In this document: piece by piece, positions 1 through 64,000 of the stretch
Layout of the letters: the number at the start of each line of letters is the position of its first letter
How positions within the stretch are numbered: the first letter of the stretch is position 1
DNA from: a virus
IMG/VR virus record: IMGVR_UViG_3300002144_000072
Location: 1-64,000 of that record
Strand: one strand, 5' to 3'
DNA length: 64,000 bases
Program-made: the position numbers and the translations under genes
Notes under the pieces: model-generated
Seen by the model: the letters and a program-made list of their open reading frames with translations, nothing else
What the model was told of the DNA's origin: nothing
Databases searched by the model: none

Positions 1-855
1 AAGATTGTTGGTGATGTTTATACCTCTGTTCTAAGAACAAGCGAAACAAAGATTGCACTTGGTGAAAATGCAGGTCTTACAACTCAAGGCGTCTATGCAG
101 TAGCAGTTGGAACAGATGCAGGTAAAACAACTCAAGGCACAGAAGCAGTAGCAATCGGTAATGATGCAGGTAACACAACTCAAGGCGCAGGTGCAGTGGC
201 AGTTGGTGGTTCGGCAGGCTACACAGGTCAAGGTGAATTTGCAGTAGCAGTTGGTAATGATGCAGGTAACACAACTCAAGGCTATGGTGCTACAGCAGTA
301 GGTAACTCCTCAGGTAGTAATACACAAGGCAATTTTGCAGTAGCAATTGGCTTTAATGCTGGAACTACATCGCAAGGCATAAGTGCAGTAGCAATTGGTG
401 ATACAGCAGGTAAAACTAATCAAGGTGAAGACTCAATAGCAATTGGTAAAGAAGCAGGTGAAACTAACCAAGCGGCAAACTCAATTGTACTTAACGCAAC
501 TGGCGCTGCGGTAGAAAATACAACAGCAAGTAGTTTAGTAATTAAACCAATTAGAGGTGCTGATGGTACATCTATATTACAATACAATTCTACCTCAGGC
601 GAGGTGACATATAGTTCTGCACTGGGATCAGTAAGTGGTACATTTACTGGTAATATTTTTACTACATTAATTGACAGTTCAGACAGTTCAGCAATTACTA
701 TTACTCCTGCTGTGTTTTTTAGCAGTGATATTATTGCGGAGAACGAAATAACAATTCAAGGCAGTAGAGTTATTAATCTAGCTGGATTAAAATCAGTGGT
801 AGCGGCAAGTACAGACTTTGCAGACTTCCAGATTAGAATTGCGGCATTGGTATAA
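1..855 (+). CDS. Tail fibre/adhesin protein with YadA-head-like 14-aa repeats (5'-truncated)
   Basis: Frame is open from base 1 (KIVGDVYTS...). About ten AVAIG-x-x-AG-x-T-x-QG repeats, typical of trimeric beta-roll adhesin heads. Confidence 0.75.
   Translation, partial: KIVGDVYTSVLRTSETKIALGENAGLTTQGVYAVAVGTDAGKTTQGTEAVAIGNDAGNTTQGAGAVAVGGSAGYTGQGEFAVAVGNDAGNTTQGYGATAVGNSSGSNTQGNFAVAIGFNAGTTSQGISAVAIGDTAGKTNQGEDSIAIGKEAGETNQAANSIVLNATGAAVENTTASSLVIKPIRGADGTSILQYNSTSGEVTYSSALGSVSGTFTGNIFTTLIDSSDSSAITITPAVFFSSDIIAENEITIQGSRVINLAGLKSVVAASTDFADFQIRIAALV
52..480 (+). repeat. Degenerate 42-nt coding tandem repeat
   Basis: Recurrent gcagtagca(a/g)ttggt...gcaggt...actcaagg units at 42-nt period. 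Confidence 0.85.
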
Positions 856-867
856 TTGGAGCGATAA

Positions 868-1092
868 ATGACACAACAAACAATCAACGTAGGCGCTTCG
901 GCAAATGACAAACAAGGTGATAGCCTACGTGCTGCCTTTACCAAAGTTAATGCAAATTTTACAGAACTATATGCTACAACATATACACCAACTACAGCAG
1001 GCGACTGGGCAGGAACTGCACCAACTACTGTAGGAGCAGCATTGGACAGATTAGCTGCCGCGGTTAAAGCGATAGATAGTACTGGTGCATAA
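868..1092 (+). CDS. Small virion protein with T4 gp9/gp10-like N-terminal motif
   Basis: QTINVG..ND..GDSLRAAFTKVNANFTEL. Confidence 0.65.
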   Translation: MTQQTINVGASANDKQGDSLRAAFTKVNANFTELYATTYTPTTAGDWAGTAPTTVGAALDRLAAAVKAIDSTGA

Positions 1093-1119
1093 CGGTAAAT
1101 ATACTAAAGAGAGCGCATA

Positions 1120-1695
1120 ATGACAGTACAAACAATTAATATCGGAAATGTAGTAAACGATGGCCTAGGTGATGATCTACGCACCGCCTTTCAAAAGGTT
1201 AACGCTAACTTTACATCATTGAGTACAGAATTAACCATTACAGCATCAAACGTAGGTATAACAGGATACGGAGTTTTTAAACAAAAAACTGGTGCTAATT
1301 TAGAATTCAAAACACTAGTGTCTGGTACTAAAATGTTGTTAGACGACACAAGTGACGCTATCATCTTTAATAATACTTCTCCGGATGCTTTTATTAGAAT
1401 TGACACAGATTCCGGTAGCATGTTAGCCAGCACACATCAACAGATCACATTTGGTGGTACTGCTGCTCCTGGTTCGGTGACTAGCAGAAAAGATATAGAA
1501 GTCACAACAACTGGTTCGACTGTTTCTTTTAAAACTATCATTCCAGTCACAGATATTCTAACATCGTATGATTTCGGTACCATTACCGGCGACTACGATA
1601 ATGCAATGCAAGTATTGTATCAATCATCAAACATAGACTTTGGCACCATAACTCTTCCAGGAAGACTAGCTCTAGACTGTGGTTCCATATTGTAA
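1120..1695 (+). CDS. Baseplate/fibre protein with gp9/gp10-like N-terminus
   Basis: QTINIG..NDGLGDDLRTAFQKVNANF; N-terminus paralogous to 868..1092. Confidence 0.65.
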   Translation: MTVQTINIGNVVNDGLGDDLRTAFQKVNANFTSLSTELTITASNVGITGYGVFKQKTGANLEFKTLVSGTKMLLDDTSDAIIFNNTSPDAFIRIDTDSGSMLASTHQQITFGGTAAPGSVTSRKDIEVTTTGSTVSFKTIIPVTDILTSYDFGTITGDYDNAMQVLYQSSNIDFGTITLPGRLALDCGSIL

Positions 1696-1707
1696 GGAGA
1701 TGTCCAG

Positions 1708-4742: not shown

Positions 4743-4972
4743 TGTTCCATCCACTTGAAGAAGATCTGTCCAATCTCAAAGACCAAGAGGTTGAGCAGAA
4801 GCTTCTAGAATTAACCAAAAAATATCACACAGTTGCACGTTTAGGCAACCAAGATCTCTTGACACAACTATCAACATTTGTTATAATATACAGAGAGGAG
4901 ATGTCTAAAAGACATACTCGTAGACTGAAAGATACAGATAGTGATATGGGTCAATTGATTAATGTGGACTAA
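4742..4972 (+). CDS. Hypothetical protein
   Basis: ORF translationally coupled to both neighbours. Confidence 0.55.
   Translation: MFHPLEEDLSNLKDQEVEQKLLELTKKYHTVARLGNQDLLTQLSTFVIIYREEMSKRHTRRLKDTDSDMGQLINVD
4859..4887 (+). promoter_or_regulatory. Sigma70-type promoter TTGACA-17-TATAAT
   Basis: Perfect consensus inside the upstream ORF, ahead of 4962. Confidence 0.75.
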
Positions 4973-5423
4973 TACAACAGAGCAGCTAATACAAGGTGTC
5001 ATAAAACATGGCCCTCAGATTCTTTCTGAATGTGTTTCTGCAGATGATTTAAGTCAATACATCAATCGACTACATGACGAGCATCTAAACTATCCAATCC
5101 CCAAAACTAAAATCAATCCAAGCAACTGGTTTATTCCAGACGAATATAAAAACATGGATATCGAAGAGTTAGTAGTCCAGGTATGTCCGGAAGAAAATTA
5201 TAATAGGATAATTACTGAGTTAGAGCTTTTTCGTAAAAACAATATGATTCCAGTGCTGTTAGCAATGAAATTTGTAGTAGATACCCTTAGAGCTAATAAC
5301 ATAGTTTGGGGTGTGGGCAGAGGTAGTAGTGTAGCAAGTTATGTGTTATACTTGATTGGTGTACACAAGGTAGACAGTGTTAAATACAATTTACCAATAG
5401 AAGAATTCTTTAAGGAGAAATAA
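4962..5423 (+). CDS. DNA polymerase III alpha (DnaE)-like fragment
   Basis: WGVGRGSSVASYVLYLIGVHKVDSVKYNLPIEEFF matches DnaE GPGRGSAAGSLVAY.LGIT..DP..Y.LLFERF. The ORF stops before the catalytic PDxDxD. Confidence 0.75.
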   Translation: MWTNTTEQLIQGVIKHGPQILSECVSADDLSQYINRLHDEHLNYPIPKTKINPSNWFIPDEYKNMDIEELVVQVCPEENYNRIITELELFRKNNMIPVLLAMKFVVDTLRANNIVWGVGRGSSVASYVLYLIGVHKVDSVKYNLPIEEFFKEK

Positions 5424-5424
5424 A

Positions 5425-5652: not shown

Positions 5653-5654
5653 TT

Positions 5655-6077
5655 ATGAGTTTTGCATTTGAAGCTAAAAAAGTTAAAATCCGTGCCATGT
5701 CCAAGGATGTCCTTGTTATTAATATGGATATGGGTGAACAACTTACCAAAGGTGGTATTATCGTTGGCAGTGATGACGGTAAAGCACACGGAGTTAAACC
5801 TCGTTGGGCTGAAGTTTATAAAGTTGGCAGTGAGTGCGGAATTGATGTTAAGGTAGGGCAATGGGTATTAATTGAGCACGGTCGGTGGACTCGTAAGATT
5901 AAGATCGATGACGGCGATGGTGAGAAAGAGTTTCAAAAAGTAGAAATAAAATCTATCATAATTGTTGCCGACGAAAAGCCCAATGACTTTTATATCGGAA
6001 AAGAATACACTCACGGTAGCAGTATGGATATTAATCCAGAAGACTTCATGCCAGGCAACTTATCTAAAACAGGGTAA
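5655..6077 (+). CDS. GroES/Cpn10-like co-chaperonin
   Basis: TKGGII mobile-loop motif, then AEVYKVG and VKVGQWVL. Confidence 0.65.
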   Translation: MSFAFEAKKVKIRAMSKDVLVINMDMGEQLTKGGIIVGSDDGKAHGVKPRWAEVYKVGSECGIDVKVGQWVLIEHGRWTRKIKIDDGDGEKEFQKVEIKSIIIVADEKPNDFYIGKEYTHGSSMDINPEDFMPGNLSKTG

Positions 6078-6316: not shown

Positions 6317-6326
6317 GGAGATACGA

Positions 6327-6692
6327 ATGACAAATCCATTTCGCGATCAAGCGAAGTTTATGACTGCCTGCGGTCAATCTGTAAGCGAAATCAATAATGC
6401 TCAATACGCAATGTATTTGGATCTAATTGATGAAGAGCGCGAAGAACTAAAAGAAGCTATTGTTGCAAGCGACCGTGTAGAACAATTAGATGCATTAATT
6501 GACATTCTAGTTGTGACTGTTGGAGCAATTCATTCAGGCGGATTCGATGCCGAAGCGGCATGGAACGAAGTAATGAAAACTAACTTTGCTAAAGTAGATC
6601 CGGAAACTGGACTAGTACGTAAACGTGAAGATGGTAAAGTTCTTAAGCCCGAAGGTTGGACTGCTCCTGAACTATCACCATTTGTAAAATGA
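6327..6692 (+). CDS. MazG-like/PRA-PH all-alpha NTP pyrophosphohydrolase
   Basis: LIDEEREEL, EQLDALID, NFAK..REDGKVLKP.GW motifs. Confidence 0.8.
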   Translation: MTNPFRDQAKFMTACGQSVSEINNAQYAMYLDLIDEEREELKEAIVASDRVEQLDALIDILVVTVGAIHSGGFDAEAAWNEVMKTNFAKVDPETGLVRKREDGKVLKPEGWTAPELSPFVK

Positions 6693-7467: not shown

Positions 7468-7468
7468 C

Positions 7469-9148: not shown

Positions 9149-9618
9149 CCGATAAGAAAAAGTCTAATCTAGCCAAGGGACGACACAGCTTTGATGCCGA
9201 CGTTGGTGGTACGCTAATTCCATTTTTTAATAGGAATGTATCTAAATATCCCACCGAAGCAGGCGGCCCTAACTTTGACCTAGTCCCTGTGACTAAGCAG
9301 AAAGATCTAATGATCAATCATGCTAGGATGTATGCCCAGCAAGAATATGATCGTATCATGGAACTTGTTAGTGTATTAGAAAAGCAGGCTGCACAGATTA
9401 AACGTAGATTGGATATTACAGATGCAGTACATGCTGCTGAATATGAATTTCAGCCTGTGATGGGTAAAGAGTACTGGTTGGTTTGGGATACTCGCAAAGA
9501 AAAGATGAGGCTAGTACTAGGAGGTCCTACTGATTGGTCTAGTAGTCCCCCTGATTGGTACGACTATCAAACACAAGTAAAATATATGGGCGACCACACA
9601 TGGTTGGAAATAGAATGA
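9145..9618 (+). CDS. Hypothetical protein (DUF2452-like)
   Basis: Coiled coil followed by A.Y.FQPV.G..Y.L, recalled as DUF2452. Confidence 0.5.
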
Positions 9619-10142
9619 AAGAAAAGTTTGTAAAATTATATATGGACTGGGCAGGACGTACTGCCGAACTCAGTCATGCTGAGAGACTACAAGTAGGCGC
9701 TGTTATCGTCAAAGATGATACTGTAATCAGCTACGGCTACAATGGTATGCCTGCAGGCTGGGACAACAATTGTGAAAATGTAGAATGGTGCAGTGCAGGT
9801 GGGTGGCTTGATCCTGAAGAGATCGAAACAGGTTGGCCATTCGAAGGTACTTACTTAGATGCTGATGGTAATGAAATGCAAGGCCGGTATCGACTAAAAA
9901 CTAAACCTGAGGTGCTTCATGCGGAAAGCAATGCGATTGCAAAATTGGCTAAGTCTACTAACAGTGGTTTGGGTGCTAGCATGTTTATTACCCATGCTCC
10001 ATGTTTGGACTGTGCCAAACTTATATACCAAAGTGGTATTAGCAGTGTTCTATATAGGAACGCTTATAGGGATACTAGTGGTATTGCGTTTTTGCAAAAG
10101 TCCGGAGTGAATGTAAAACAATTCGGAGAAGAAGAAGAATGA
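9615..10142 (+). CDS. dCMP deaminase
   Basis: QVGAVIV, GYNG, HAESNAI, PCLDC zinc motifs. Confidence 0.92.
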   Translation: MKEKFVKLYMDWAGRTAELSHAERLQVGAVIVKDDTVISYGYNGMPAGWDNNCENVEWCSAGGWLDPEEIETGWPFEGTYLDADGNEMQGRYRLKTKPEVLHAESNAIAKLAKSTNSGLGASMFITHAPCLDCAKLIYQSGISSVLYRNAYRDTSGIAFLQKSGVNVKQFGEEEE

Positions 10143-11118: not shown

Positions 11119-11139
11119 ATAAGGCTTTCCCTCCTAGTA

Positions 11140-13358: not shown

Positions 13359-13360
13359 CA

Positions 13361-13783
13361 ATGTTTAGCTCTATTAAAATCGCATTGGCGTTATTTGTTC
13401 TTGCATCTGCAGGAGCAGGATATATGTATGTAAAAAAGATTGAGGGTGACTTACAGACTGCAAGAGAAAACGTTGCTAAGATGGAAGTTGCTATACAAGT
13501 TAGCGAAGCAAGTATTAAGATGATGGAAACAGATATCAAGCGTACAAGCGAGCTTAACATGCAGTTGCAAGGCGATTTACAGAAAGCAGAGAAGTATGGG
13601 GATGAACTTCGTGCTACTCTACAGAAGCACAACCTAACTATGCTGGCTCTAAAAAAGCCTGCTATGATCGAACAAAGGATGCAAGATGCAACTACTAAGA
13701 TTTGGGCTGACATCACTACTGATACTGACCCTAGCAGGGTGCAGTCTCCTGCGCCCGGAAGCAAAAGTAATAACGGTAACTAA
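13361..13783 (+). CDS. Inner-membrane spanin (Rz-like)
   Basis: N-terminal TM helix and coiled coil, directly after the endolysin. Confidence 0.75.
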   Translation: MFSSIKIALALFVLASAGAGYMYVKKIEGDLQTARENVAKMEVAIQVSEASIKMMETDIKRTSELNMQLQGDLQKAEKYGDELRATLQKHNLTMLALKKPAMIEQRMQDATTKIWADITTDTDPSRVQSPAPGSKSNNGN

Positions 13784-14063
13784 TACTGTAAAAACTACAG
13801 TGCCTCCGGCTGCAAGGCCTAAGCCTGTACAGATGAACAATATTAAAATCTATGTTGTTAATAAAGACAACTATGATCTGTTCGTTGAAGAATTCACTAA
13901 GAAAAATGGTGAACTAGTATATATTGCTATTAGTGTTAAAGACTATGAAAATTTATCGTTAAACATAGCAGAGCTAAGAAGATATCTTAATCAACAAAAA
14001 GAAATAATTGTTTATTACGAAGAAGCAACTAAAGCAGAAGACATAAAACCAATATCTAAATAA
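13686..14063 (+). CDS. Outer-membrane lipoprotein spanin (Rz1-like)
   Basis: Lipobox LTLAG/C, Pro-rich linker, overlaps the i-spanin 3' end in another frame. Confidence 0.78.
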   Translation: MQLLRFGLTSLLILTLAGCSLLRPEAKVITVTNTVKTTVPPAARPKPVQMNNIKIYVVNKDNYDLFVEEFTKKNGELVYIAISVKDYENLSLNIAELRRYLNQQKEIIVYYEEATKAEDIKPISK

Positions 14064-14577: not shown

Positions 14578-15417
14578 ATGGATTATTACTCTACACTCGG
14601 ATTAACACGTGGCGCATCAGACGCCGATATCAAGAAAGCATATCGCACTATGGCGATGAAGCATCATCCCGACAGGGGTGGTGATGAACAAAAATTTAAA
14701 GAAATTGCAACGGCATACGAAGCATTAACTGATCCCCAGAAAAGACATATCATTGATATGGGTGGTGATCCTAATGCACAACCCGGTCGAAACAATCCCA
14801 ATCAAGGCAATCCATTTGAATTTCACTTTGGCACAGGTAATATGGAAGACATATTCAACAACTTTGGCTTTAGTGGGTTCAATCGAAATCTTCGTAAGAA
14901 TAAATCATTGAATATTTCTGTAGAAATTACTCTAGAAGAAGTATTAACTGGCAAAGACATTGCAGCAGAGCTAGGGCTTCCGACCGGTAGGAAGAAGATG
15001 ATTAATATTCAAATACCCCCGGGTATAGAACACGGTCAACAAATTCGATATGAAGGTATGGGAGATAATGCAATACCTAATCTGATGCCAGGAGATCTTA
15101 TAGTTAATGTGAATGTGCTTCCTCATAGATCTTTTAAAAGAGAGGGCACGTCATTAACTATCGATAAAGAAATCAATGCATGGGATGCTATTCTCGGAAC
15201 ATCCATAGAGATAAAAACACTGGGCGGAAAATCACTGTCGGTTAACTTACCGCAAGGCACACAGCCTGATACTACATTTAGAATACCAGACGAAGGATTG
15301 CCAGATATGAGAACTAGACGAAGAGGTAATCTTCTTATTAAAATTAAAGTTAAAATCCCGAAAGATTTAACTCAAGCACAGTTAGAAAAAATTCAACAGG
15401 TGCAACATGGAATTTAA
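14578..15417 (+). CDS. dnaJ: DnaJ/CbpA-type co-chaperone without zinc finger
   Basis: DYY..LG, HPD motif, G/F region, DnaJ C-terminal domains. Confidence 0.9.
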   Translation: MDYYSTLGLTRGASDADIKKAYRTMAMKHHPDRGGDEQKFKEIATAYEALTDPQKRHIIDMGGDPNAQPGRNNPNQGNPFEFHFGTGNMEDIFNNFGFSGFNRNLRKNKSLNISVEITLEEVLTGKDIAAELGLPTGRKKMINIQIPPGIEHGQQIRYEGMGDNAIPNLMPGDLIVNVNVLPHRSFKREGTSLTIDKEINAWDAILGTSIEIKTLGGKSLSVNLPQGTQPDTTFRIPDEGLPDMRTRRRGNLLIKIKVKIPKDLTQAQLEKIQQVQHGI

Positions 15418-15901
15418 ACTAGGACCGCACAATTCTTTAGTAGAACAAAGTACTCCTTGGGACTTTGCAAGTGATATCGGTGCAAAAGATCTAGAAAAAC
15501 AAATGTGTTCTTTTATGATCGAAGCAAAAGGCATAGGGCTTGCTGCTAATCAATTAGGATTAACTAAGCAAGTATTCGTTATGGGCAGCTATAGTATAGC
15601 GGGCTTTCCAGAACCGTTCGCCTTGTTTAATCCTAAGATACTAGAAGCAAGCAAAGAAGAAGTTCTAGACGAAGAAGGTTGTCTTAGCTATCCGGGATTG
15701 TTTTTAAAAGTAAAACGTCCTAGCTGGATAATTGTAGAATATCAAAACAGCAACGGTGATACTATCGAAGCCAAGTTTGATGGATACTTAGCAAAGTGCT
15801 TTCAGCATGAGTTAGATCACCTAAACGGCATCTGCTTTGTTGACAAAGTAGGTCAAGTGAAGTTAAAATTAGCTATGAAGAAACTTAGGAAAAACAAATA
15901 A
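15407..15901 (+). CDS. def: Peptide deformylase
   Basis: GIGLAANQ, EGCLS, QHELDHLNG. Confidence 0.95.
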   Translation: MEFKLGPHNSLVEQSTPWDFASDIGAKDLEKQMCSFMIEAKGIGLAANQLGLTKQVFVMGSYSIAGFPEPFALFNPKILEASKEEVLDEEGCLSYPGLFLKVKRPSWIIVEYQNSNGDTIEAKFDGYLAKCFQHELDHLNGICFVDKVGQVKLKLAMKKLRKNK

Positions 15902-25719: not shown

Positions 25720-28389
25720 ATGAGCTACGTTGACGCATTCTATGATCGCGACGAGGACATTATACGTGTCGTCGAGCGCAATGACAAAGGTGAAAGGCAT
25801 TATAAAGATTATCCTGCCAGACACATCTTTTATTATAAAGACCCCAAGGGCAAGTTCCTTTCAATTAAAGGTGAACCATTAACTAGAGTGACTTCTAGGA
25901 ATGTTAAAGAACACCGCAAAGAACTTGCAATTTATTCAAACAAAAAACTATATGAATCAGACATTAAGCCTGTATTCCGTTGTCTAGAAGACAACTATCT
26001 TAATCAAGATGCCCCCAAGCTAAACGTAGCATGGTTCGACATTGAGGTAGACTTTGATCCAGAACGTGGCTATGCTTCACCAGAAGATGCATTCATGCCA
26101 ATTACTGCTATCGCTGTCTACCTACAATGGATGCAGACTATGGTATGTTTAGCAATTCCTCCTAAGACATTATCAATGGAAGAAGCTGAAAAGCAAGTAG
26201 CAGAGTTTCCCAACACAATGCTTTTTAAGAACGAAGCAGATATGTTAGATACGTTCTTAGACTTAATTCAAGATGCAGACGTACTAAGTGGCTGGAACAG
26301 TGAAGGATTCGATATTCCGTATACTGTTAACCGTGTCACTAAAGTTCTAAGCAAAGAAGATACTAGACGATTCTGCTTGTGGAATCAGTTGCCGAAGAAA
26401 CGTGAATACGAAAAGTACGGCAAGACTGCTATTACATACGACTTCGTGGGTCGTGTACACTTGGATAGTTTGAACTTGTATCGTAAGTACACCTATGAAG
26501 AACGTCACAGCTATCGACTAGATGCTATTGGTGAGATCGAAGTAGGTGAGAACAAGACCGTCTACGAAGGCTCACTTGATCAGTTATACAACAATGACTT
26601 TAAAAAGTTTATTGAATATAACAGACAGGATACTATGCTTCTTGAGAAACTTGACAAGAAGTTAAAGTTTATGGATCTTGCTAACACACTAGCACATGAG
26701 TGTACTGTGTTGCTAATGACTACCATGGGTGCTGTGGCTGTGACCGAGCAGGCTATTATTAACGAAGCTCACAAGCGTGGCATGATTGTTCCTAATCGTA
26801 TTAGCCGTGATGAGAACGTTGATACACAGGCTGCGGGTGCATATGTTGCGTTTCCTAAGAAAGGAATTCACGAGTGGATTGGCTCACTGGATATTAATTC
26901 ACTGTATCCATCTGCGATTCGTGCATTAAACATGGGTCCAGAGACTATTGTTGGACAGTTGCGACAAGATGGTACTAACGACTTTGTTGCTGCTCAAATG
27001 GGCAAGGGTAAGTCATTCGCAGGTGCTTGGGAAGGTATCTTCGGAAGTTTAGAATATACTGCTGTAATGGAACGAAATGTCAGTCGAGATATTACAATTG
27101 ATTGGGAAGATGGTGGAAGCGATACATTAAGTGCTGCACAAGCATACGACTTGATATTTGAAAGCAACCAACCTTGGATGATTAGTGCTAACGGTACTAT
27201 CTTTACCTACGAAAAGGAAGGTATTATTCCTGGCTTGCTCAAGCGTTGGTATGCTGAACGTAAAGACATGCAGAAAAAACTCAAAGAATGTATTGCTGCC
27301 GGCAACAAGATTGAAGAAGAGTATTGGGACAAGCGTCAGTTAGTTAAGAAGATTAACTTGAATAGTTTGTACGGTGCTATCCTTAATGCTGGTTGCAGAT
27401 TCTTTGATAACCGTATTGGACAATCAACTACACTAACTGGTCGTGCTATTGCACAACACATGGCTGGAAAAGTAAATGAAATTATCACAGGCGAATTTGA
27501 TCACACAGGTAAAGCAATTATCTATGGTGATACAGACTCCTGTTATTTCTCAGCGTATGCCACGCTAAGAAAAGAAATTGACAAGGGCGCACTGCCTTGG
27601 ACAAGAGAGAGTGTAATTGAACTTTACGATACTATAGGAGAAACTGTAAATGACACATTCCCAAAATTTATGCAAGATGCTTTCCACTGCCCCAAGACTC
27701 GAGGAGAGGTCATTAAGGCAGGTCGCGAGATTGTTGCTTCCAAGGGACTATTCATCACCAAGAAGCGATACGCAGTTCTCTACTACGACAAAGAAGGTAA
27801 GCGAGCAGACAAAGAAGGACACGGCGGAAAGATCAAGGCAATGGGACTCGATCTCAAGCGGTCAGATACCCCTGTTGTTATCCAAGACTTTTTAAGTGAA
27901 GTATTGACTCGTGTACTAAACGGTGAGACTAAAGAATCTATTCTAGAGTACATTACTGAGTTTAGAACTGAGTTTAAACTTCGTCCAGGTTGGGAGAAAG
28001 GCAGTCCTAAACGTGCAAACAAGATTTCAGAGTATCGAGACAAAGAAAAGAAAGCAGGCAAGACTAACATGCCCGGGCATGTCCGTGCTAGTTTGAACTG
28101 GAACACTTTGAAACGGTTAAACTCTGACAAGTATTCTGTGGCTATTATAGATGGTGCTAAAGTTATTGTCTGTAAGGTCAAAGATAATCCAATGGGGTAT
28201 ACTAGTGTTGCATACCCTGTAGATGAACTACGGTTGCCGCAATGGTTTAAAGACTTACCATTCAATGATGCAGAAATGGAAACTGCTGTCATTGATGAAA
28301 AGCTAGGAAACTTGATTGGAGTACTAGAATGGGATATCAGTTCTACAAGAAATGATAATACCTTCGGTAAACTATTTGACTTTGAGTAA
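25720..28389 (+). CDS. Family B DNA polymerase (T4 gp43-like)
   Basis: Exo FDIE, GWNS..FD, YN..D; polymerase DINSLYP, K...NSLYG, YGDTDS, KKRY. Confidence 0.97.
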   Translation: MSYVDAFYDRDEDIIRVVERNDKGERHYKDYPARHIFYYKDPKGKFLSIKGEPLTRVTSRNVKEHRKELAIYSNKKLYESDIKPVFRCLEDNYLNQDAPKLNVAWFDIEVDFDPERGYASPEDAFMPITAIAVYLQWMQTMVCLAIPPKTLSMEEAEKQVAEFPNTMLFKNEADMLDTFLDLIQDADVLSGWNSEGFDIPYTVNRVTKVLSKEDTRRFCLWNQLPKKREYEKYGKTAITYDFVGRVHLDSLNLYRKYTYEERHSYRLDAIGEIEVGENKTVYEGSLDQLYNNDFKKFIEYNRQDTMLLEKLDKKLKFMDLANTLAHECTVLLMTTMGAVAVTEQAIINEAHKRGMIVPNRISRDENVDTQAAGAYVAFPKKGIHEWIGSLDINSLYPSAIRALNMGPETIVGQLRQDGTNDFVAAQMGKGKSFAGAWEGIFGSLEYTAVMERNVSRDITIDWEDGGSDTLSAAQAYDLIFESNQPWMISANGTIFTYEKEGIIPGLLKRWYAERKDMQKKLKECIAAGNKIEEEYWDKRQLVKKINLNSLYGAILNAGCRFFDNRIGQSTTLTGRAIAQHMAGKVNEIITGEFDHTGKAIIYGDTDSCYFSAYATLRKEIDKGALPWTRESVIELYDTIGETVNDTFPKFMQDAFHCPKTRGEVIKAGREIVASKGLFITKKRYAVLYYDKEGKRADKEGHGGKIKAMGLDLKRSDTPVVIQDFLSEVLTRVLNGETKESILEYITEFRTEFKLRPGWEKGSPKRANKISEYRDKEKKAGKTNMPGHVRASLNWNTLKRLNSDKYSVAIIDGAKVIVCKVKDNPMGYTSVAYPVDELRLPQWFKDLPFNDAEMETAVIDEKLGNLIGVLEWDISSTRNDNTFGKLFDFE

Positions 28390-29196: not shown

Positions 29197-30732
29197 ATGA
29201 AAAAACCAGTTGACTTAACACCCTTACAGAAAGACTACGCAGTCTACTTGCCTGCGATTAGTTCTTTTTACTCAACATACATTGCCAAGCAACGTAAAGG
29301 AGAGTTTGTACCCAAGGATCGAATCCCAGCGGGGTTTGATCGCGGAATTGAAGGCATGAACTTCTTAAACCCAGAAGAAGGATACTTCTATTACAAGTTT
29401 GGTTTGTATTCAGCTGGTCATGCACAGTTAGACCTTAACAAGACTATGGATCATGATGCTATGGTACAGCAACGTGATCGTAGCAAGACTATGATCTTAG
29501 GCGACTCAGGCGGATATCAGATCGGTAAAGGCATTCTTAAGTTTGATTGGCTTGACTTTGAAGGCAAAGCAGCTAATAAGACACGTGATGATATTCTTAA
29601 CTGGCTTGAACTAACTGCTGACTGGTCCATGATGCTAGACGTTCCGACTTGGGCATGTGATCATATTCACAGTCCTAAGACCGGATTGAAGTCATTTGAA
29701 GACTGCCTGGATAAAACTCGTCACAACAACAAGTACTTCTTAGAAAATCGCTTAGGTGCTACTAAGTTCTTAAACGTTTTACAAGGAAGCAACTGGGATA
29801 CTGCGGAAGCGTGGTACGAAGGTGTTAAAGAGTTCAGTGACACTAAAGTTTGGGGCGAAAAAGCCGCTGAAGGTTGGGCAATGGGTGGTGCTAATATGTG
29901 CAAGATGCATATTACTCTACGTCGATTAATCACTATGCGCTTTGATGGTATGTTAGAAGGCAAGGATTGGATGCACTTCTTGGGTACTGCACAGTTAGAT
30001 TGGTCGTGCTACTTGACTAGTATTCAACGTCAGGTCCGTAAACATATTAATCCTAACTTTACAATCAGCTTTGACTGTGCGTCACCGTTCATTGCAACTG
30101 CACACGGACTTGTTTACACTAATAGTCAGCATACAGCCAAGCGATGGAGTGTTATCATGGACAAGGCTCCGGACAATAAAGCACTTGCATCACGTCCAGA
30201 CATTCCGTTTCCATTCGAAAGCGAAATTGGTCGTAGACTAAACATCTCTGATATCTGTCATTACAAGCCAGGAATGTTAAACAAGATTGGCAAAGAAGGC
30301 AAGACATCGTGGGATAGCTTTGGTTATGCTCTAATGATGGGTCATAATGTGTATCAACACATTGTTGCTGTACAACGTGCTAACAATTTGGCAGATATCG
30401 AGCTTGCTAAGATTCGTCCAGACTGGAGACAGTGGAAGAAGAACAAAGATCGTGATATGAGCGATGAGTACAGTGATTGGGTTCCACGGAACATCTTGTA
30501 CTTTGATCGCTTTGTTGAAGAACTGTTTGACTGCCCGGACAAAGAATCTGCATTTGATATGATTAAAGAAGCTGAAACTAGAGGCTTTATGCAGAATTTG
30601 GAAGGCTCACGCTTGCGTGGTGGTGTCACTAATATCTCAAATGACTTGTTCTACGAAGAAGGTGAAGAAGATAAAGATTCGTGGAATGACGATCGAGAAG
30701 ATACCGAATTGGATAAACTTGTAGCCGAATAA
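29197..30732 (+). CDS. dpdA: TGT-fold guanine transglycosylase (DpdA-like, DNA 7-deazaguanine insertion)
   Basis: GDSGGYQ, MMLDVP, VLQG, WAMGG, HFLG, SFDCAS motifs; clustered with folE and queE. Confidence 0.82.
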   Translation: MKKPVDLTPLQKDYAVYLPAISSFYSTYIAKQRKGEFVPKDRIPAGFDRGIEGMNFLNPEEGYFYYKFGLYSAGHAQLDLNKTMDHDAMVQQRDRSKTMILGDSGGYQIGKGILKFDWLDFEGKAANKTRDDILNWLELTADWSMMLDVPTWACDHIHSPKTGLKSFEDCLDKTRHNNKYFLENRLGATKFLNVLQGSNWDTAEAWYEGVKEFSDTKVWGEKAAEGWAMGGANMCKMHITLRRLITMRFDGMLEGKDWMHFLGTAQLDWSCYLTSIQRQVRKHINPNFTISFDCASPFIATAHGLVYTNSQHTAKRWSVIMDKAPDNKALASRPDIPFPFESEIGRRLNISDICHYKPGMLNKIGKEGKTSWDSFGYALMMGHNVYQHIVAVQRANNLADIELAKIRPDWRQWKKNKDRDMSDEYSDWVPRNILYFDRFVEELFDCPDKESAFDMIKEAETRGFMQNLEGSRLRGGVTNISNDLFYEEGEEDKDSWNDDREDTELDKLVAE

Positions 30733-34373: not shown

Positions 34374-34766
34374 ATGCAATTAGTCAAAATACTAGAAGAC
34401 CTTACTTCTAATCAAGACGAATACAATGAGCTGTATAATACCGATCATTTATTTGTTATCAAAGGAAAAGACCTCGACGATCACGGTCTAATTGATGTCA
34501 TCAACGACATCGATCATCACGAGTGGTTTAGAAAACTGCGAGGTATGGGATTCGGTCCTGCAAAACTACACAACATCCATAACAATAAAGACTGGGTACA
34601 CGGATACATTATTGCTGTATCTAATCAAAATCTAACCAACTTTGAAAAGTTAGCTGTATTAGTTGGAATGAAACACGGGTATACATTTTCAAAAATAGAC
34701 ATCTTTCAATCTAAGAAAGAAAAAGTAGACACTCACTTTGATTCGCTATTTGAGGTAATTCAATGA
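34374..34766 (+). CDS. Hypothetical protein
   Basis: SD GGAG; overlaps the folE start. Confidence 0.55.
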   Translation: MQLVKILEDLTSNQDEYNELYNTDHLFVIKGKDLDDHGLIDVINDIDHHEWFRKLRGMGFGPAKLHNIHNNKDWVHGYIIAVSNQNLTNFEKLAVLVGMKHGYTFSKIDIFQSKKEKVDTHFDSLFEVIQ

Positions 34767-35509
34767 CAGATAAAAAAGAAACAGGACTAGACGCTATGGC
34801 AGGTGATGGTGGCTATAGTGAAGGATATCTAGGCGATAACATTCGTGCTAGAATGAAACGTGATAAAAAGCGTTTCTGGGCAGGCGACAACATCAGCGAG
34901 TATGTACATTTTACAGATTTTGATAGACTTGTTGACGAAGCTACCGTCGCCTTTGAAGGCGTACTTGATGCACTGTTAATCGATCGTGAGAATGATCCTA
35001 ACTCGCAAGGTACTGCACGTAGACTTGCCAAGATGTACTTTAACGAAATTATGGCAGGGCGTTATGAATCTGCACCAGACGCAACAGCGTTTCCAAATGA
35101 CACCGAGGACAGATATGAAGGCATGTTGGTTGTACGTAGTGAGTTGCGTAGTATGTGTAGTCATCACCATCAGCCTGTCGCTGGGGTTGCCTACATTGGA
35201 ATTATTGCTGCTCAAAAGTTAATTGGTCTTAGCAAATATACTCGCATTGCACAGTGGTGTGCTAGACGAGGTACACTACAAGAAGAACTCTGCAACGACA
35301 TTGCTCGTGAGATCAGTAAGGCAACTGATAGTGAAAATGTAGCAGTTTACATTCAAGCAGTACACGGATGTTGTGAGAATCGTGGAATTATGGCGCATAG
35401 TAGTCTAACACAAACTACAGTATTGAAAGGTGCGTTCAATACAGATCAAAGCACAAAGAAAGAGTTCTTTGACAACATTAAACTACAACAGGAGTTTGCC
35501 TCAAGATGA
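34763..35509 (+). CDS. folE: GTP cyclohydrolase I
   Basis: T.RR.AKMY, SMCSHH, GLSKY.R, LQE, H.C...RG. Confidence 0.95.
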   Translation: MTDKKETGLDAMAGDGGYSEGYLGDNIRARMKRDKKRFWAGDNISEYVHFTDFDRLVDEATVAFEGVLDALLIDRENDPNSQGTARRLAKMYFNEIMAGRYESAPDATAFPNDTEDRYEGMLVVRSELRSMCSHHHQPVAGVAYIGIIAAQKLIGLSKYTRIAQWCARRGTLQEELCNDIAREISKATDSENVAVYIQAVHGCCENRGIMAHSSLTQTTVLKGAFNTDQSTKKEFFDNIKLQQEFASR

Positions 35510-35931
35510 GTACTTGGTTTGCGCCGCTTAAAGATAATCTAATGGTACAACAGCAGATCGACGGCGCATGGCAACACATGGTTGGTGTGATTATGTTAAA
35601 TCAAACAGGAAGGAAGGCAGTGAAACTAACACTGCCCGAATTCTTATATTGGTTTCCTATGCCACAAAATCTGCTAGATGCTGACGAAGAGTTTGTTAAG
35701 AGTATTATCGCCCCGTTAGGAATGGTGAATGTTCGCTATACTCGTTTGTTTAGAATGACCCAAGACTTCTTGACATGGGACAGAAATGATGCTACAATAT
35801 TGTATGGCATTGGAAAGTATGGTTCTGATAGTTATGAAATCTTTTTTAAGAACAACTATAATGTAGAACCTACTGACAAAGAACTAAAACGTTATTTAGA
35901 AGAAGAGGTGTATTATATCTATGCTGCTTAA
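35506..35931 (+). CDS. MBD4-like HhH DNA glycosylase
   Basis: W..MVGVIMLNQT, PLG...R, LYGIGKYGSDSYEIF, closely resembling the MBD4 catalytic domain. Confidence 0.75.
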   Translation: MSTWFAPLKDNLMVQQQIDGAWQHMVGVIMLNQTGRKAVKLTLPEFLYWFPMPQNLLDADEEFVKSIIAPLGMVNVRYTRLFRMTQDFLTWDRNDATILYGIGKYGSDSYEIFFKNNYNVEPTDKELKRYLEEEVYYIYAA

Positions 35932-38115: not shown

Positions 38116-38282
38116 AACTCGAGGAAGATCCAGATACCGGTGATTTGGTTCTTCCATTTCCTCCAGACCTGCTAGCACAAGTAGGTTGGGATTTTGGAGA
38201 TACCCTAATTTGGGATGAAGGTAAAGACGGCACATTTATATTGTCAAAAAAGGTTGACAACGATTCAGAAAAGAGTGTATAA
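38082..38282 (+). CDS. AbrB/MazE-like small protein
   Basis: GDLVLPFP.DLL...GW..GD.L.W swapped-hairpin pattern. Confidence 0.6.
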   Translation: MQDNAQRTWTIKLEEDPDTGDLVLPFPPDLLAQVGWDFGDTLIWDEGKDGTFILSKKVDNDSEKSV

Positions 38283-38283
38283 T
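38254..38283 (+). promoter_or_regulatory. Sigma70 promoter TTGACA-18-TATAAT for queE
   Basis: -10 ends 6 nt before ATG 38290; -35 lies in a TTGTCAA/TTGACAA inverted repeat. Confidence 0.65.
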
Positions 38284-38289
38284 AATAAC

Positions 38290-39135
38290 ATGAGCAAATT
38301 AAAAATAGCAGAGCTGTTCTACAGCATTCAAGGTGAAGGACGCTACATGGGCGTTCCTTCTGTTTTCCTACGTGTCTTCGGATGCAATTTTAAATGTGCT
38401 GGATTCGGCATGCCTCGAGGAGAACTTTCAAACGAACTTGAGGCAATAGTATCTCGTGTTGCAGACTTTAAAGATTATAAAGAACTGCCACTAGTAAGTA
38501 CAGGATGTGACAGCTATGCTAGTTGGGATCCTCGTTTTAAACATTTAAGTCCAATGCTTACTAGTGAAGCTATTGTAGATCGTATTATGGAAATTCTTCC
38601 GCAAGATCACTGGAAGGACGAGCACCTGGTTATTACAGGCGGTGAGCCTTTACTAGGATGGCAACGTGCTTATCCAGATTTACTAAACAATCCTAAGATG
38701 CGTGACTTGAAAGAGATTACATTTGAAACAAATGGTACTCAGAAACTTACTCCGGAATTTAAAGGCTGGTTAGCTAAGTGGAACAGTACAGTTGGACATG
38801 AAGTCACATTTAGTGTAAGTGCTAAACTTCCATGTAGTGGCGAGAAGTGGGAAGAAGCGATCCTTCCAGAAGTTGTTTGTGAGTACGAAGAAGTAGGTAC
38901 AGCATACTTGAAGTTTGTTATTGCTACAGAACAAGACTTTGCTGATGCAGAACGTGCTGTTGAGGAATATCGTGCAGCAGGATTTAAAGGACACGTTTAC
39001 TTAATGCCAGTGGGTGGTGTAGAAAGCGTCTATGCATTAAACAATAAGAATGTAGCATTGTTAGCAATGAAGCATGGTTTGCGATATAGTGATAGATTGC
39101 AGGTACCCTTATTTAAAAACGAATGGGGTACTTAA
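38290..39135 (+). CDS. queE: 7-carboxy-7-deazaguanine synthase (radical SAM)
   Basis: ELFYSIQGEG...G.PSVFLR.FGCNFKC...CDS, VITGGEP, FETNGT, RLQ. Confidence 0.92.
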   Translation: MSKLKIAELFYSIQGEGRYMGVPSVFLRVFGCNFKCAGFGMPRGELSNELEAIVSRVADFKDYKELPLVSTGCDSYASWDPRFKHLSPMLTSEAIVDRIMEILPQDHWKDEHLVITGGEPLLGWQRAYPDLLNNPKMRDLKEITFETNGTQKLTPEFKGWLAKWNSTVGHEVTFSVSAKLPCSGEKWEEAILPEVVCEYEEVGTAYLKFVIATEQDFADAERAVEEYRAAGFKGHVYLMPVGGVESVYALNNKNVALLAMKHGLRYSDRLQVPLFKNEWGT

Positions 39136-39767
39136 TGAACGAAGATATTATAATACATAACGAAAACGAATATTGGAAGGCAGTTTATAAAAAACAAATA
39201 AAATTTGTATCTAAAAAAGATCCTACAGTAATACCATGGGAAATAAAAACATTTGATCCCAATTTAAAAGAAATTTTAGATTATTATAAATTAGATACGG
39301 GAAAACTTCTAGAATTAGGATGCGGGCGAGGAGACGATTGTAAATATCTTGCTGATAGAGGGTTCGATGTTACAGGCATAGATGTTTCTCCCGATGTGAT
39401 ACAGATTGCTAAAAATAATTCAACTAATGTTAAATTTATAGAAGGTGATATTTTTACAGAAGTATTTAATACACAATTTGATATTATATTTGACAGAGGT
39501 TTCTTACATAACTACGAAAATCAATTGTTTGAAATATTTGAAATATGTAGCAATGTAATAAAACAAGGCGGAAAGTTCATTATTATTTCAGGTAATGCTA
39601 ATCAACCGCCGATCGATAGCTGTACACCGCCTCCAATAAATATAGGTCAAATAGAATATCATTCGTTTCCATGGTTTAAAATACTCTACGCTAAAGAAAT
39701 AACATTTTACACAGATGAAAATTATTTGAATTGCCTAGGTTATATATTTGTATTAGAAAAAAAATAA
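39135..39767 (+). CDS. Class I SAM-dependent methyltransferase (TPMT-like)
   Basis: LLELGCGRG, VTGIDVS, FDIIFDRG.LH; markedly AT-rich. Confidence 0.82.
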   Translation: MNEDIIIHNENEYWKAVYKKQIKFVSKKDPTVIPWEIKTFDPNLKEILDYYKLDTGKLLELGCGRGDDCKYLADRGFDVTGIDVSPDVIQIAKNNSTNVKFIEGDIFTEVFNTQFDIIFDRGFLHNYENQLFEIFEICSNVIKQGGKFIIISGNANQPPIDSCTPPPINIGQIEYHSFPWFKILYAKEITFYTDENYLNCLGYIFVLEKK

Positions 39768-54037: not shown

Positions 54038-54073
54038 GAATATATTCTTCTATATGAGTTTCTATTTAATATC

Positions 54074-54970: not shown

Positions 54971-54979
54971 TTGTTATCC

Positions 54980-56782: not shown

Positions 56783-56815
56783 TCTGTTAGCCCCTAATGT
56801 CTATTATTTATTGTA

Positions 56816-57172: not shown

Positions 57173-57174
57173 TA

Positions 57175-59448: not shown

Positions 59449-59468
59449 CTATGCCGCTCCTGAATTCA

Positions 59469-61298: not shown

Positions 61299-61314
61299 AT
61301 TTCCATCGACCTAA

Positions 61315-63426
61315 TTAGAATGCGGGTGGTCCAGATCTAATGATATAATTAATCGTTAGATATGGGTTCATAATACCAACAGCAGTGCTTAATGTTGTTC
61401 CTGAAGGCTTTTTAATTCCTCCAGAATCTTTCAGATACTGTGCCTGACCCGGAGCAGTAGGACCTAGTCCTGTCACTGCGTCTGGATCAATTGTTGTTGT
61501 GACTGCTACTGCTGCGTAGTCTTGTCTTGCAGAACTTAATGAGTGACTATGTTCTGGAAGATTTGCTAGTGTTAGTGTAGTCGAGCTCTGTCCTGCATCA
61601 CCACCTAGTGTTTGGGCTTTGATGTCTGGAACTCGACTTGCCGTGCCGCCACCGGCATCGACATAGCCACCTGATGCAATAGGAACAGTTCCAGCATTAT
61701 CCATGTTATCACGTCCCAGTGGAAATCTTCCTCTAAGATCTGGTAATCTAAACGTACCTACACCTACAAGTGCAGTTATTCCGTTGTATGCTGTTCCGAT
61801 TGTATCATATAAAGAGGAATACTTTGTTCTTTCTACTTCGGATCCGTCGCAGAATAAAAACCCGTAAGGTGCAGATGATCCTGCATACGGAAGTATAGCT
61901 CCCATTGGAATTCCTAAGTCTCCAACAAATGTGTCTCTTGTTTGTTTTAATAGACCTGAGGAAGTTGACGCCGCTTCGCTAGCTCTATAAGTTAGAATAA
62001 AGTCTGAAGTTTTAGATACGTTAGGAAACGGAGTGTCTTTTCCAGAAATAATATTAGCTGTAAGAGACGTGTTGAATACTTTTGTATAGCTACCTACTTG
62101 TCCGTCAAACTGTACTGCAGGAGAAATAACATCTCCTGATAGCTGAAAACTTGTGACATTGCGTAAGCTAGTAGCTGTATTAGAATTTCCGCTGATGTTG
62201 CCTTCTAGCACACCTTGAATAGTGTCAGCAATAATAGTTTTTGCTCTAACAGTATCCCAGCGTTTTAAACTTGTTCCTAGATCATAAGTGTCGGTAGTTT
62301 TAGGCTGAATGTTGTTGACCTGCAATGTACCAGTTATGTCGGCGCCGTCACCAACTAATAGATTCTTTGTTATCGATGCGCCACCTGCTGTTCGAATACT
62401 ACCGTTATTAAGATTAGTGCTAGAAGTGGTACTAGTGACAATAACTGCACCAGTTAATGTAATATTACCATCTATGTCTAATGTTTCAGTTGGATCTGCT
62501 TTGTTGATACCAATTCTATTATCAACAACTTTCAAAACAGTTGACGGAATGCCATTTCTGTTTGTCTGAATATCAATCGAACTACCTGCTGCAGAGTTGT
62601 AAATTTTAGCAGCAGTAGTTGTATTAGAAATATTAAATGTTCCGTCAACTCCTAGGGTAATACCATTGTTATTCCTAACGTTAAATCCGTAGTCAGTTGT
62701 ATTGATAACATCGGATCTTAAAAATTTACCGGCAGCAACAGCAACACCTGCAACATTCAGTGCGTCTGAATTTTTTGCTGTGCCATATAGTGTTGGCAAA
62801 AAGCCGCCAACAAATTCTGCAATTTCAGTACCAGTTGCTGGGGATGAAACGTTAATGCCGGATCTAATGATATCAAATCCGGAAATTAAAACTTTAGGCG
62901 TAAAGCTGTCTTTTGAGAAAACAATTATAGGAATGTCTGCAATATAAAATGTTAAAATATATTTTGTTAAGTTGTCAGAGTCAGCAATGCTTTCGACCAC
63001 TGGGCCGTATCGCAGACCGTCAACTGAACTTTCACTCGGACCAACTAATAACCATCGAGTTCCGGTAAAAATACGCAGTTGTTGATTAGTAGTATCAACC
63101 CATAACTCTCCAACTTTACTATCAGACACTGCTGGTTCTGATGGGCCTTTTTGGATACCCGATGCTGCTTTCCATGCAGTATTGTCCCATAGCATTAGTA
63201 CGCCGTTCGTACTGTCATACCAGATTTGACCTTCGATAGGATTAATTGGTTGAGTTGAGCTAGCAAAATTTTCCAATAATGCTAAAAAGTTTTCTGCAAT
63301 AATTTGACCATAACCTGTGACATTTCTGCCAGGAAATGTTAAACTTGTATCTGTACTCGAAGTATTATCAAATACAGTAATTGGAGTTTTATTATCGCTG
63401 TCTGTAAAATTAACGGTATATGGCAT
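61315..63426 (-). CDS. Short tail fibre-like protein with tail-collar domain
   Basis: PMGAILPYAG..AP.GFLFCDG...F.LPDLRGRFP.G; LPEHSH; NPYL..NYII. Confidence 0.8.
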   Translation of the reverse strand: MPYTVNFTDSDNKTPITVFDNTSSTDTSLTFPGRNVTGYGQIIAENFLALLENFASSTQPINPIEGQIWYDSTNGVLMLWDNTAWKAASGIQKGPSEPAVSDSKVGELWVDTTNQQLRIFTGTRWLLVGPSESSVDGLRYGPVVESIADSDNLTKYILTFYIADIPIIVFSKDSFTPKVLISGFDIIRSGINVSSPATGTEIAEFVGGFLPTLYGTAKNSDALNVAGVAVAAGKFLRSDVINTTDYGFNVRNNNGITLGVDGTFNISNTTTAAKIYNSAAGSSIDIQTNRNGIPSTVLKVVDNRIGINKADPTETLDIDGNITLTGAVIVTSTTSSTNLNNGSIRTAGGASITKNLLVGDGADITGTLQVNNIQPKTTDTYDLGTSLKRWDTVRAKTIIADTIQGVLEGNISGNSNTATSLRNVTSFQLSGDVISPAVQFDGQVGSYTKVFNTSLTANIISGKDTPFPNVSKTSDFILTYRASEAASTSSGLLKQTRDTFVGDLGIPMGAILPYAGSSAPYGFLFCDGSEVERTKYSSLYDTIGTAYNGITALVGVGTFRLPDLRGRFPLGRDNMDNAGTVPIASGGYVDAGGGTASRVPDIKAQTLGGDAGQSSTTLTLANLPEHSHSLSSARQDYAAVAVTTTIDPDAVTGLGPTAPGQAQYLKDSGGIKKPSGTTLSTAVGIMNPYLTINYIIRSGPPAF

Positions 63427-63429
63427 CTA

Positions 63430-63999
63430 TTAAACCTCCGTGAAACCAGTTAAGCTCTGTACACGGATTGTGTAATCGATCTGTAGTAATCTGTTCAATG
63501 ACTTTTGCACAGGGTGGAAAATAACGTGAGTTAATAGTTTGCCTGTTCCATTGGGATTATAACCTACTAAGCCTAATTCATCAAAAACAAAGTTTCCATT
63601 CATATCGACAGAGTTGTCAAACGCCTGTTGATCAAGTGGCTCACCGTAATCTAACAAACAACTAATTAAGATGTCACTATATGTTGCACCACTAATATGA
63701 CGTATTTCCATTTTATTTCGAATAGGATCTACGTTTTCAATTGCGTTTTGATCTACAACTTTTGTATATGTTTGATTATATAAACTAGAATTTATACCCA
63801 CGGTGTTTGGAGTTAGATATGTAATTAATCCAGTAGGATCAACAATTGTACCTCCTGTACCAAACGCCATTTGATAAACAGTGCCTTGCCCTTGATTACT
63901 CAAGCTCTGCACCATTGCTACGCTCATGTTTTCATAATGAATTGCATTACGTTTGTCGATGTAAATTTCTTTAGATTCCGGATCAAATATTTTAATATG
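63430..63999 (-). CDS. Baseplate-type structural protein (5'-truncated by window end)
   Basis: Frame open to the window end (HIKIFDPESKEIYIDKRNAIHYENMS...); FDELGL, LLTHVIFHPVQKS. Confidence 0.65.
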   Translation of the reverse strand, partial: HIKIFDPESKEIYIDKRNAIHYENMSVAMVQSLSNQGQGTVYQMAFGTGGTIVDPTGLITYLTPNTVGINSSLYNQTYTKVVDQNAIENVDPIRNKMEIRHISGATYSDILISCLLDYGEPLDQQAFDNSVDMNGNFVFDELGLVGYNPNGTGKLLTHVIFHPVQKSLNRLLQIDYTIRVQSLTGFTEV

Positions 64000-64000
64000 C

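Follow-up and report, generated by a model that had tools for sequence, protein, structure and literature searches.

Near-complete loss of the palindrome GTWAC from an uncultured jumbo T4-related phage: a probable case of restriction-site avoidance

The Type II restriction enzymes MaeIII (GTNAC) and Tsp45I (GTSAC) each recognize a five-base GT-N-AC palindrome, the central base being the sole difference between the two sites, and neither recognizes GTWAC (GTAAC or GTTAC) alone. The subject of this work is the near absence of GTWAC from a 64,000-base stretch of viral DNA (hereafter the window), which comprises bases 1–64000 of the 97,111-base IMG/VR contig IMGVR_UViG_3300002144_000072. Site avoidance in viruses has been reported mainly at orthodox Type II sites in non-temperate double-stranded DNA phages, and about one viral genome in ten has a site completely or nearly eliminated (Rusinov et al. 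2018, BMC Genomics 19:885, PMC6286503). Both GTWAC and GTNAC are given in the main text of a study of marine metagenome-assembled genomes (MAGs) as methylated motifs with no REBASE match, the carriers of these motifs not being named there (Hiraoka et al. 2022, NAR 50:1531, PMC8919816). A further system of relevance is that of the phage DpdA enzymes, which modify guanine in particular sequence contexts only and protect from restriction enzymes, the known targets being GA in phage iggy (PMC10484667) and GA plus GGC in phage CAjan (PMC7544227).

As in the phages surveyed by Rusinov et al., a short palindrome has here been nearly eliminated by silent recoding, and other palindromes are under-represented too. 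Unlike in that survey, the purge could be traced over approximately 160 close relatives, with at least seven changes of state and with intermediate as well as GTNAC-wide states. The two word classes, GTWAC and GTNAC, are the same as those of the marine MAG motifs; the main text describing the latter concerns methylation, not cutting, and makes no link to phages of this clade or to their hosts. Phenomena of this kind are familiar, and the gain here lies in resolution and a testable prediction rather than in a new principle. Added here are the fine-grained evolution of a purge (including intermediates, GTNAC variants and the re-import of sites by recombination), a clean case of a site surviving under dual-coding constraint, and a testable link to context-specific hypermodification. 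Like the MaeIII and Tsp45I sites, the avoidance states found in the clade (GTWAC and GTNAC) vary in the central base, but unlike the target of Tsp45I, GTSAC is enriched and not avoided in this genome.

An exact count gave five GTWAC in the window (GTAAC at 170, 266, 302 and 13776, and GTTAC at 39369). These are the positions listed in the original prediction, which was made by eye from the letters alone and had overlooked none. Dinucleotide-preserving shuffles of the window gave 131.8 ± 11.6 expected sites (100 of 100 shuffles with five or more, maximum 173) and a maximal-order Markov model gave 101.6 (z = -9.6, with the runner-up 5-mer at z = -3.3), in agreement with the rough expectation of about a hundred that had been put forward. 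For the entire 97,111-base contig, which adds one site at 67332, six GTWAC compare with an expectation of 154.6 (z = -11.95). The resulting observed/expected ratio (O/E) of 0.04–0.05 represents a depletion of approximately 25-fold, with about 96% of sites gone. This was confirmed in coding DNA using a codon null, in which synonymous codons were shuffled within genes so that proteins and per-gene codon usage were preserved (300 shuffles), giving 168.8 ± 9.5 expected sites (minimum of the 300 shuffles, 129) against 3 observed. In the same null GTSAC was enriched, with 170 observed against 90 expected, as would be the case if GTW codons had been exchanged for GTS. The codon-pair remarks from which the prediction started were also borne out, Val-Thr pairs using GTG or GTC in 69 of 70 cases while GTA and GTT make up 78% of all Val codons, and the codon pairs GGT-AAC and GGT-TAC being counted once and not at all, respectively. 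Since the depletion survives the dinucleotide, Markov and codon nulls, the last two of which had been proposed as a check, it is not explained by shorter k-mers or by codon usage.

The avoided word is GTWAC exactly and nothing broader in this genome. All one-mismatch neighbours of GTWAC showed O/E values of 0.95–1.51, these words being sinks for mutated sites, and GTAC, GTTAAC, GTATAC and the remaining GT...AC words occurred at normal frequency. GTAAC and GTTAC were depleted alike on the sense strand and in all codon phases able to hold them. Such frame-independent, strand-symmetric depletion indicates selection on double-stranded DNA and not on translation.

GTWAC is an extreme outlier among 5-mers but is not the only avoided word, since GTGCAC, AAGCTT, CGCG and AGCGCT are avoided too, throughout the clade. 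Of the ApaLI word GTGCAC this genome has no copy, against about 13 expected, and the clade as a whole has very few; this genome is further depleted in AAGCTT, CGCG, GGATCC and AGCGCT. The words originally cited as unaffected (GATC, GAATTC, GGATCC, AAGCTT, GTAC, GTTAAC and GTSAC) are indeed all present, but two of them, AAGCTT (O/E 0.26) and GGATCC (O/E 0.31), are depleted. The clade-wide avoidance of GTGCAC, AAGCTT, CGCG and AGCGCT constitutes an older shared layer beneath the lineage-specific purge of GTWAC, and the avoidance of several 6-bp palindromes across a clade is a general signature of restriction avoidance.

To place the purge among relatives, a comparison set was used that covered 80 IMG/VR loci around the family B DNA polymerase gene, 80 metagenome loci around the adjoining gene, which encodes a DpdA-like protein (Table 1), and five whole relative contigs. 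None of the 47 aligned GTWAC of relative G005 was retained here (about 14 expected at 78% identity), and none of the 52 aligned GTWAC of seven near relatives (about 17 expected), the control words GTSAC and GTWAT being retained at 30–50% in the same comparison. The site-destroying substitutions fell at word positions 1, 2, 3 and 5 and in many directions, and the one-base fixes were mostly synonymous. This variety of positions and directions argues for selection favouring any change that destroys the site rather than for base-specific mutation. The predicted strong selection against a palindromic 5-mer is therefore upheld, acting through many different and mostly silent substitutions, without regard to frame or strand.

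About 10 of the 118 classifiable relatives were purged of GTWAC, most others being normal. The closest relatives, with 95–96% protein identity, showed normal GTWAC counts, as seen for L184 (23 against 24 expected) and L185 (19 against 25 expected), both sharing 95% identity in the adjoining DpdA-like protein; G005, with 91% polymerase identity, likewise had a GTWAC O/E of 1.03. Purged relatives include L025 (0 against 20 expected), whose sister L037 has 27 against 34, and L007 (2 against 15 expected), and L241, L244 and L258 were purged as well. Intermediate states were found in G001, also among the purged, with 34 GTWAC against 135 expected over 87.5 kb (O/E 0.25), and in G002. In G002 the whole GTNAC class is avoided, with O/E values of 0.26 for GTWAC and 0.16 for GTSAC, and L069/L027, likewise depleted in GTSAC, form a second GTNAC-avoiding lineage. 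On a tree of the DpdA-like gene, the nine avoiders included required at least seven changes and clustered no more than shuffled labels; in agreement with this, avoiders were polyphyletic on the polymerase tree. Judging from these trees, the purge appears to have arisen at least seven separate times. Unpurged near relatives, at least seven changes, partial purges and GTNAC-wide states together form the pattern that would result if some host strains carried a restriction system and others did not. The occurrence of GTNAC avoidance of the G002 type beside GTWAC avoidance parallels the two methylated motifs in the main text of PMC8919816.

The few remaining sites had been predicted to mark constrained or recently acquired DNA. 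The site at 13776 lies in the overlap of two spanin-like open reading frames (ORFs) and is read as GGT-AAC in one frame and as GTA-ACT in the other. The silent one-base fixes worked through (at 13777, 13778 and 13780) all alter the protein of the other frame. GTAAC thus survives exactly where a silent change is impossible, which indicates selection acting within coding constraints. The GTTAC at 39369 falls in a class I S-adenosylmethionine (SAM) methyltransferase gene with a GC content of 28.7%, compared with 38.6% for the genome, and no homologue of this gene was found in the 80 IMG/VR relatives or the five whole relative contigs; the gene was probably acquired recently. It was also considered as a DNA methylase shielding GTWAC and rejected as such, since it belongs to small-molecule methyltransferase families. 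The sites at 170–174, 266–270 and 302–306 all lie in a tandem repeat array and all encode Gly-Asn as GGT-AAC, so that a single silent C>T would abolish each of them. The array copies at 164 and 260 have an identical 23-nt stretch in common. Recent duplication or conversion of repeats, or assembly noise at the contig end, can account for these three sites. The ORF containing the array gave a weak match to the YadA-head repeat, under the Pfam cut-off. The prediction thus holds for 13776 (dual-coding) and 39369 (low GC, no relatives) and is plausible for the three repeat sites; the sixth site, at 67332, lies outside the window. Clustering of the residual sites was marginally significant (variance/mean 1.7; p = 0.03–0.04). 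A rule based on flanking bases was considered for the survivors, four of the six being GGTAAC, but there was no symmetric context and none is proposed. The ORF of 4930 residues that holds the site at 67332 (contig 64109–78901, minus strand) shows matches to the FG-GAP repeat, CBM_5_12 and the T7 tail-fibre N-terminal domain and encodes a fibre-like protein, that is, a giant fibre or adhesin.

Residual sites in the partly purged G001 are also unevenly placed. Seven of its 34 sites lie within 2 kb that have no counterpart in relatives, a stretch bearing a class-3 lipase gene. One further site sits in a 2-kb block (approximately 82,000–84,000, L084-L085) that is 99–100% identical to the non-avoider L032, with flanks that share 76–88% identity with any relative. 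Either a purged and an unpurged phage recombined here very recently, or the block is a chimera created by assembly. The presence of residual sites in an insertion and in the L032-like block suggests that gene gain and recombination re-import sites.

These observations probably reflect the avoidance of restriction by a GTWAC-cutting enzyme carried by some host strains. The restriction endonuclease recognizing GTWAC would most likely be of the orthodox Type II kind and act as a symmetric dimer, and it would be borne by some, but not all, strains of the host. Each unmethylated GTWAC in incoming phage DNA would then represent a chance of cleavage, and variants losing sites, mostly via silent codon changes, would be favoured until about 96% were gone. 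No DNA methylase gene was found in the sampled phage DNA, but the phage would possess a 7-deazaguanine-type system (DpdA-like, FolE and QueE-like proteins). A GA-directed modification, if this system resembles known DpdAs, would leave the G of GTWAC untouched in both strands, in which case the loss of sites would be the sole protection available. The sites that remain would be those that cannot be silently removed (spanin overlap) or that are newly arrived (acquired gene, repeat turnover). In this scheme we infer that there is such an enzyme, that it belongs to the host and that the modification fails to cover GTWAC.

Searches of Pfam, PHROG and NCBIfam with the DpdA-like protein, and a direct sequence search of the PDB, gave no match. 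Its family (896 representatives) is characterized by an invariant DSGGYQ (D103–Q108) and D293, the former aligning with the same motif in tRNA-guanine transglycosylase (TGT), and the family profile matched nearly exclusively TGT structures, although weakly (E about 0.5). An AlphaFold2 model of the protein was obtained with a predicted local distance difference test score (pLDDT) of 91 and a predicted template modelling score (pTM) of 0.90, and the top seven Foldseek matches to this model were all TGT/QTRT1 (probability 1.00, E 2e-8 to 2e-6), no other kind of protein being matched at high significance. Given the fold and the nearby genes for FolE (PF01227, E 4e-40) and the QueE-like protein (several QueE models, all under curated cut-offs), there is good fold-level support for the predicted DNA guanine transglycosylase of DpdA type. 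No QueC or QueD was detected in the contig proteins scanned. The locus is like the DpdA systems of iggy and CAjan in that a TGT-fold enzyme adjoins FolE and QueE-like genes, and unlike them in that the protein is too divergent for the Pfam TGT family and matches at the fold level only.

The original prediction held that the G modification does not block sites in which G is in GT context. Of the 18 palindromes of 4 or 6 bases that contain GA, none was strongly avoided in the pooled DNA of the clade, 727 kb in all (lowest, GGATCC with O/E 0.58; others 0.87–1.23). The strongly avoided words, AGCGCT (0.13), GTGCAC (0.16), AAGCTT (0.29), CGCG (0.43) and GGGCCC (0.48), have Gs only in GC, GT and GG contexts. 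Palindromes containing GA showed higher O/E values than other G-containing ones (Mann-Whitney p = 6e-4, the words being non-independent). The TGT fold, the published GA targets and the consistent lack of strong avoidance among GA palindromes thus speak for this part of the prediction, the modification and its sequence context being putative. That the modification leaves GT-context sites uncovered is accordingly advanced as a tentative idea, with somewhat less than even chances on the evidence of word frequencies. A more extended proposal is that a GA-directed shield drives the deletion of non-GA sites and that a GTWAC/GTNAC Type II enzyme family is common and highly mobile in aquatic bacteria; this may be so, but is rather doubtful.

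A search for a cutting enzyme or a protecting methylase was made in about 70 proteins of the contig, which covers approximately 27% of the genome, and gave no restriction-like nuclease and no DNA methyltransferase in Pfam, PHROGs or NCBIfam. The proteins scanned include a clamp loader, PhoH, ClpB, DnaJ, peptide deformylase, deoxycytidine monophosphate (dCMP) deaminase, a MazG-like protein, an Mre11/Rad50-like pair and a FEN-like exonuclease. Six-frame searches of 686 kb of clade DNA detected neither RE_ApaLI nor HincII-family nucleases (the HincII search being without a positive control), nor any N6_N4, D12 or C5 DNA methyltransferase (with positive controls). The sequence-specific endonuclease gene that the prediction had suggested looking for was thus found neither in the contig proteins nor, for two families, in the clade DNA, the negatives of all these searches being limited by incomplete genomes and by the poor match of many restriction enzymes to known families. 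In the sampled regions no accessory gene was common to independent avoiders and absent from 108 non-avoiders. The single association candidate, an ORF that lies as an insertion shortly downstream of the DpdA-like gene and bears an SGNH/GDSL esterase signature (GDSFS...GGASN), was found only in two avoider contigs of the 160 relatives (L007:5930–6589 and L069:7344–8036). Because the contigs covered the genome unevenly, this gene-content contrast could reveal little, even core genes (those for the clamp loader and PhoH, for instance) appearing to be avoider-only. A literature search found no paper naming a restriction enzyme with GTWAC specificity.

With respect to the host, contigs of at least two clade phages, with polymerases 88% and 69% identical to that of this phage, were present in G006, a MAG labelled Crocinitomicaceae (contigs C167, C155 and C340). 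This repeated co-binning is a weak hint of the host. The host-like contigs of G006 also contained one GTGCAC site where about five were expected.

Several points weigh against avoidance of a host enzyme as the explanation or against the proposed role of the modification. No enzyme or methylase of GTWAC specificity was found, and the sole hint of the host is the co-binning in G006. With about 27% of the genome in the contig, a gene for the cutter elsewhere in the phage is possible. The host-like DNA of G006 (64 kb of a fragmented MAG) showed a GTWAC O/E of 0.79, a mild under-representation. The contrast between GA and non-GA words was built on non-independent words and was not significant when tested by a threshold (Fisher p = 0.15), and GGATCC, which contains GA, is moderately avoided.

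The alternative offered in the original prediction, a GTWAC nuclease encoded by the phage itself and cutting host DNA, is considered quite unlikely; such a nuclease would come without a methylase and might also be turned on rival phages, the phage itself being safe by the absence of sites. The scattered gains on the tree would suit a mobile gene, and most of the phage genome lies beyond the portion of about 27% in hand, but there is no candidate gene: the scanned contig proteins include nothing restriction-like, the RE_ApaLI and HincII families were not detected in the 686 kb of clade DNA, and no accessory gene tracks the purge in the sampled regions, the lone candidate being SGNH/GDSL-like. 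Such a nuclease would moreover cleave the six sites remaining here and the quarter left in G001 and G002, so that partly purged relatives fit poorly with it. They do fit an external enzyme, since each site lost improves the odds of the phage. An external cutter might alternatively reside on a mobile element, prophage, satellite or competing phage, or a defence might use GTWAC as a mark. The very labile, strain-like distribution of the purge would fit a highly mobile element, and the text of Hiraoka et al. states that most methylases in marine MAGs are unlinked to endonuclease genes. Nothing here, however, distinguishes this from an ordinary mobile Type II restriction-modification system, and short palindromes are typical of orthodox Type II systems, avoidance being rare for other system types (PMC6286503); an explanation of this sort is judged unlikely.

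Loss of sites without any cutting, through site-specific mutation such as damage or repair tied to the phage's own modification locus, has in its favour that this locus encodes a glycosylase-like protein and a base-exchanging TGT-fold enzyme. It is nevertheless very improbable, the substitutions having occurred at four positions of the word and in many directions with mostly silent one-base changes, relatives with a 95–96% identical DpdA-like gene having normal GTWAC counts, and a site having survived at 13776, exactly where no silent change is possible. A sequencing or assembly artefact would be suggested at most by the location of three of the six residual sites in a repeat array no more than 306 bases from the contig end, where assembly is least reliable. 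Reading frames are, however, intact at 95% coding density with synonymous replacement codons, and independent assemblies of other samples (L025, L007, G001, L241, L244 and L258) are purged too, so that the probability of an artefact is negligible.

If restriction by host strains is the cause, the 25-fold purge predicts that uncultured aquatic bacteria harbour an undiscovered family of GTWAC-specific enzymes, of which variants differing in the central base are hinted at by the sister lineages that avoid GTNAC. Purged and unpurged genomes that otherwise differ little provide a natural experiment on the rate of avoidance and its erosion by recombination. The clade also offers a route to asking which restriction sites are left uncovered by context-specific hypermodification. 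More generally, phage genomes record the defences they have met.

The contig represents part of the genome of a jumbo T4-related phage that has not been cultured. CheckV completeness was 27% for this contig and 79% for a 280-kb relative, from which a full genome of about 350 kb can be estimated. The nearest cultured relatives are jumbo T4-related phages of 350–490 kb (Phosso, Atu_ph07 and the GAP32/121Q group), with polymerase identities of at most 51%, and a search for near-identical public phage records found none. The clade is very abundant in metagenomes, with more than 599 polymerase matches in IMG/VR and approximately 8000 homologues of one adjoining protein. T4-like replication and structural genes are present on the contig, the closest cultured relatives are lytic, and no integrase was found among the scanned proteins of this partial genome. 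The window contains no tRNA genes, and the relative G001 carries two. The coordinates of the features discussed are given in Table 1.

Table 1. Coordinates of GTWAC-related features and genes in the window (base 1 is the first base of the contig).
Feature	Position	Strand	Remarks
GTWAC-depleted region	1..64000	.	5 sites vs 102–132 expected; depletion extends through rest of 97-kb contig
48-bp (16-residue) tandem repeat array, 8.2 copies	68..459	+	within 5'-truncated fibre/adhesin-like ORF 1-855
i-spanin-like ORF	13286/13361-13783	+	overlaps o-spanin-like ORF
o-spanin-like lipoprotein ORF	13686-14063	+	signal peptide with LAGC lipobox
Residual GTAAC	13776..13780	+	in overlap 13686-13783 of i-spanin-like and o-spanin-like ORFs
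Family B DNA polymerase gene (gp43-like)	25720..28389	+	marker used to gather and place relatives
DpdA-like protein gene, 511 aa, TGT fold	29197..30732	+	adjoins DNA polymerase gene; present throughout clade
GTP cyclohydrolase I gene (FolE)	34763..35509	+	first step of 7-deazaguanine precursor pathway
HhH-GPD glycosylase-like gene	35506-35931		in modification locus
QueE-like radical-SAM protein gene	38215..39135	+	putative, models under curated cut-offs
Class I SAM methyltransferase gene, small-molecule type (Methyltransf_31/25/11, TPMT-like)	39123..39767	+	contains GTTAC 39369-39373

Other genes of the contig include a chaperone and protein-maturation set consisting of a GroES-like Cpn10 (5655–6077), a full DnaJ (14578–15417), a peptide deformylase (15407–15901) and a ClpB of 789 residues (15903–18272). 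Genes sharing 80% and 72% identity with this ClpB lie on 5-kb contigs in Bacteroidota MAGs, these contigs probably being mis-binned phage fragments. An ORF of 153 residues (4962–5423) matches only the nucleoside triphosphatase (NTPase) domain of bacterial DNA polymerase III alpha (PF07733, E 3e-13), an odd isolated piece in a phage with its own family B polymerase. The presence of a dCMP deaminase (9600–10142), a MazG-like pyrophosphohydrolase (6327–6692) and a 2-oxoglutarate-Fe(II) (2OG-Fe(II)) oxygenase (contig 93099–93683) makes nucleotide-pool editing beyond the deazaguanine locus possible. Finally, TAAATA/TATTTA occurs at about half the expected frequency in the contig (54 against 103; z = -4.8), as it does in G003 and G005, a scarcity that may result from selection against spurious promoters.

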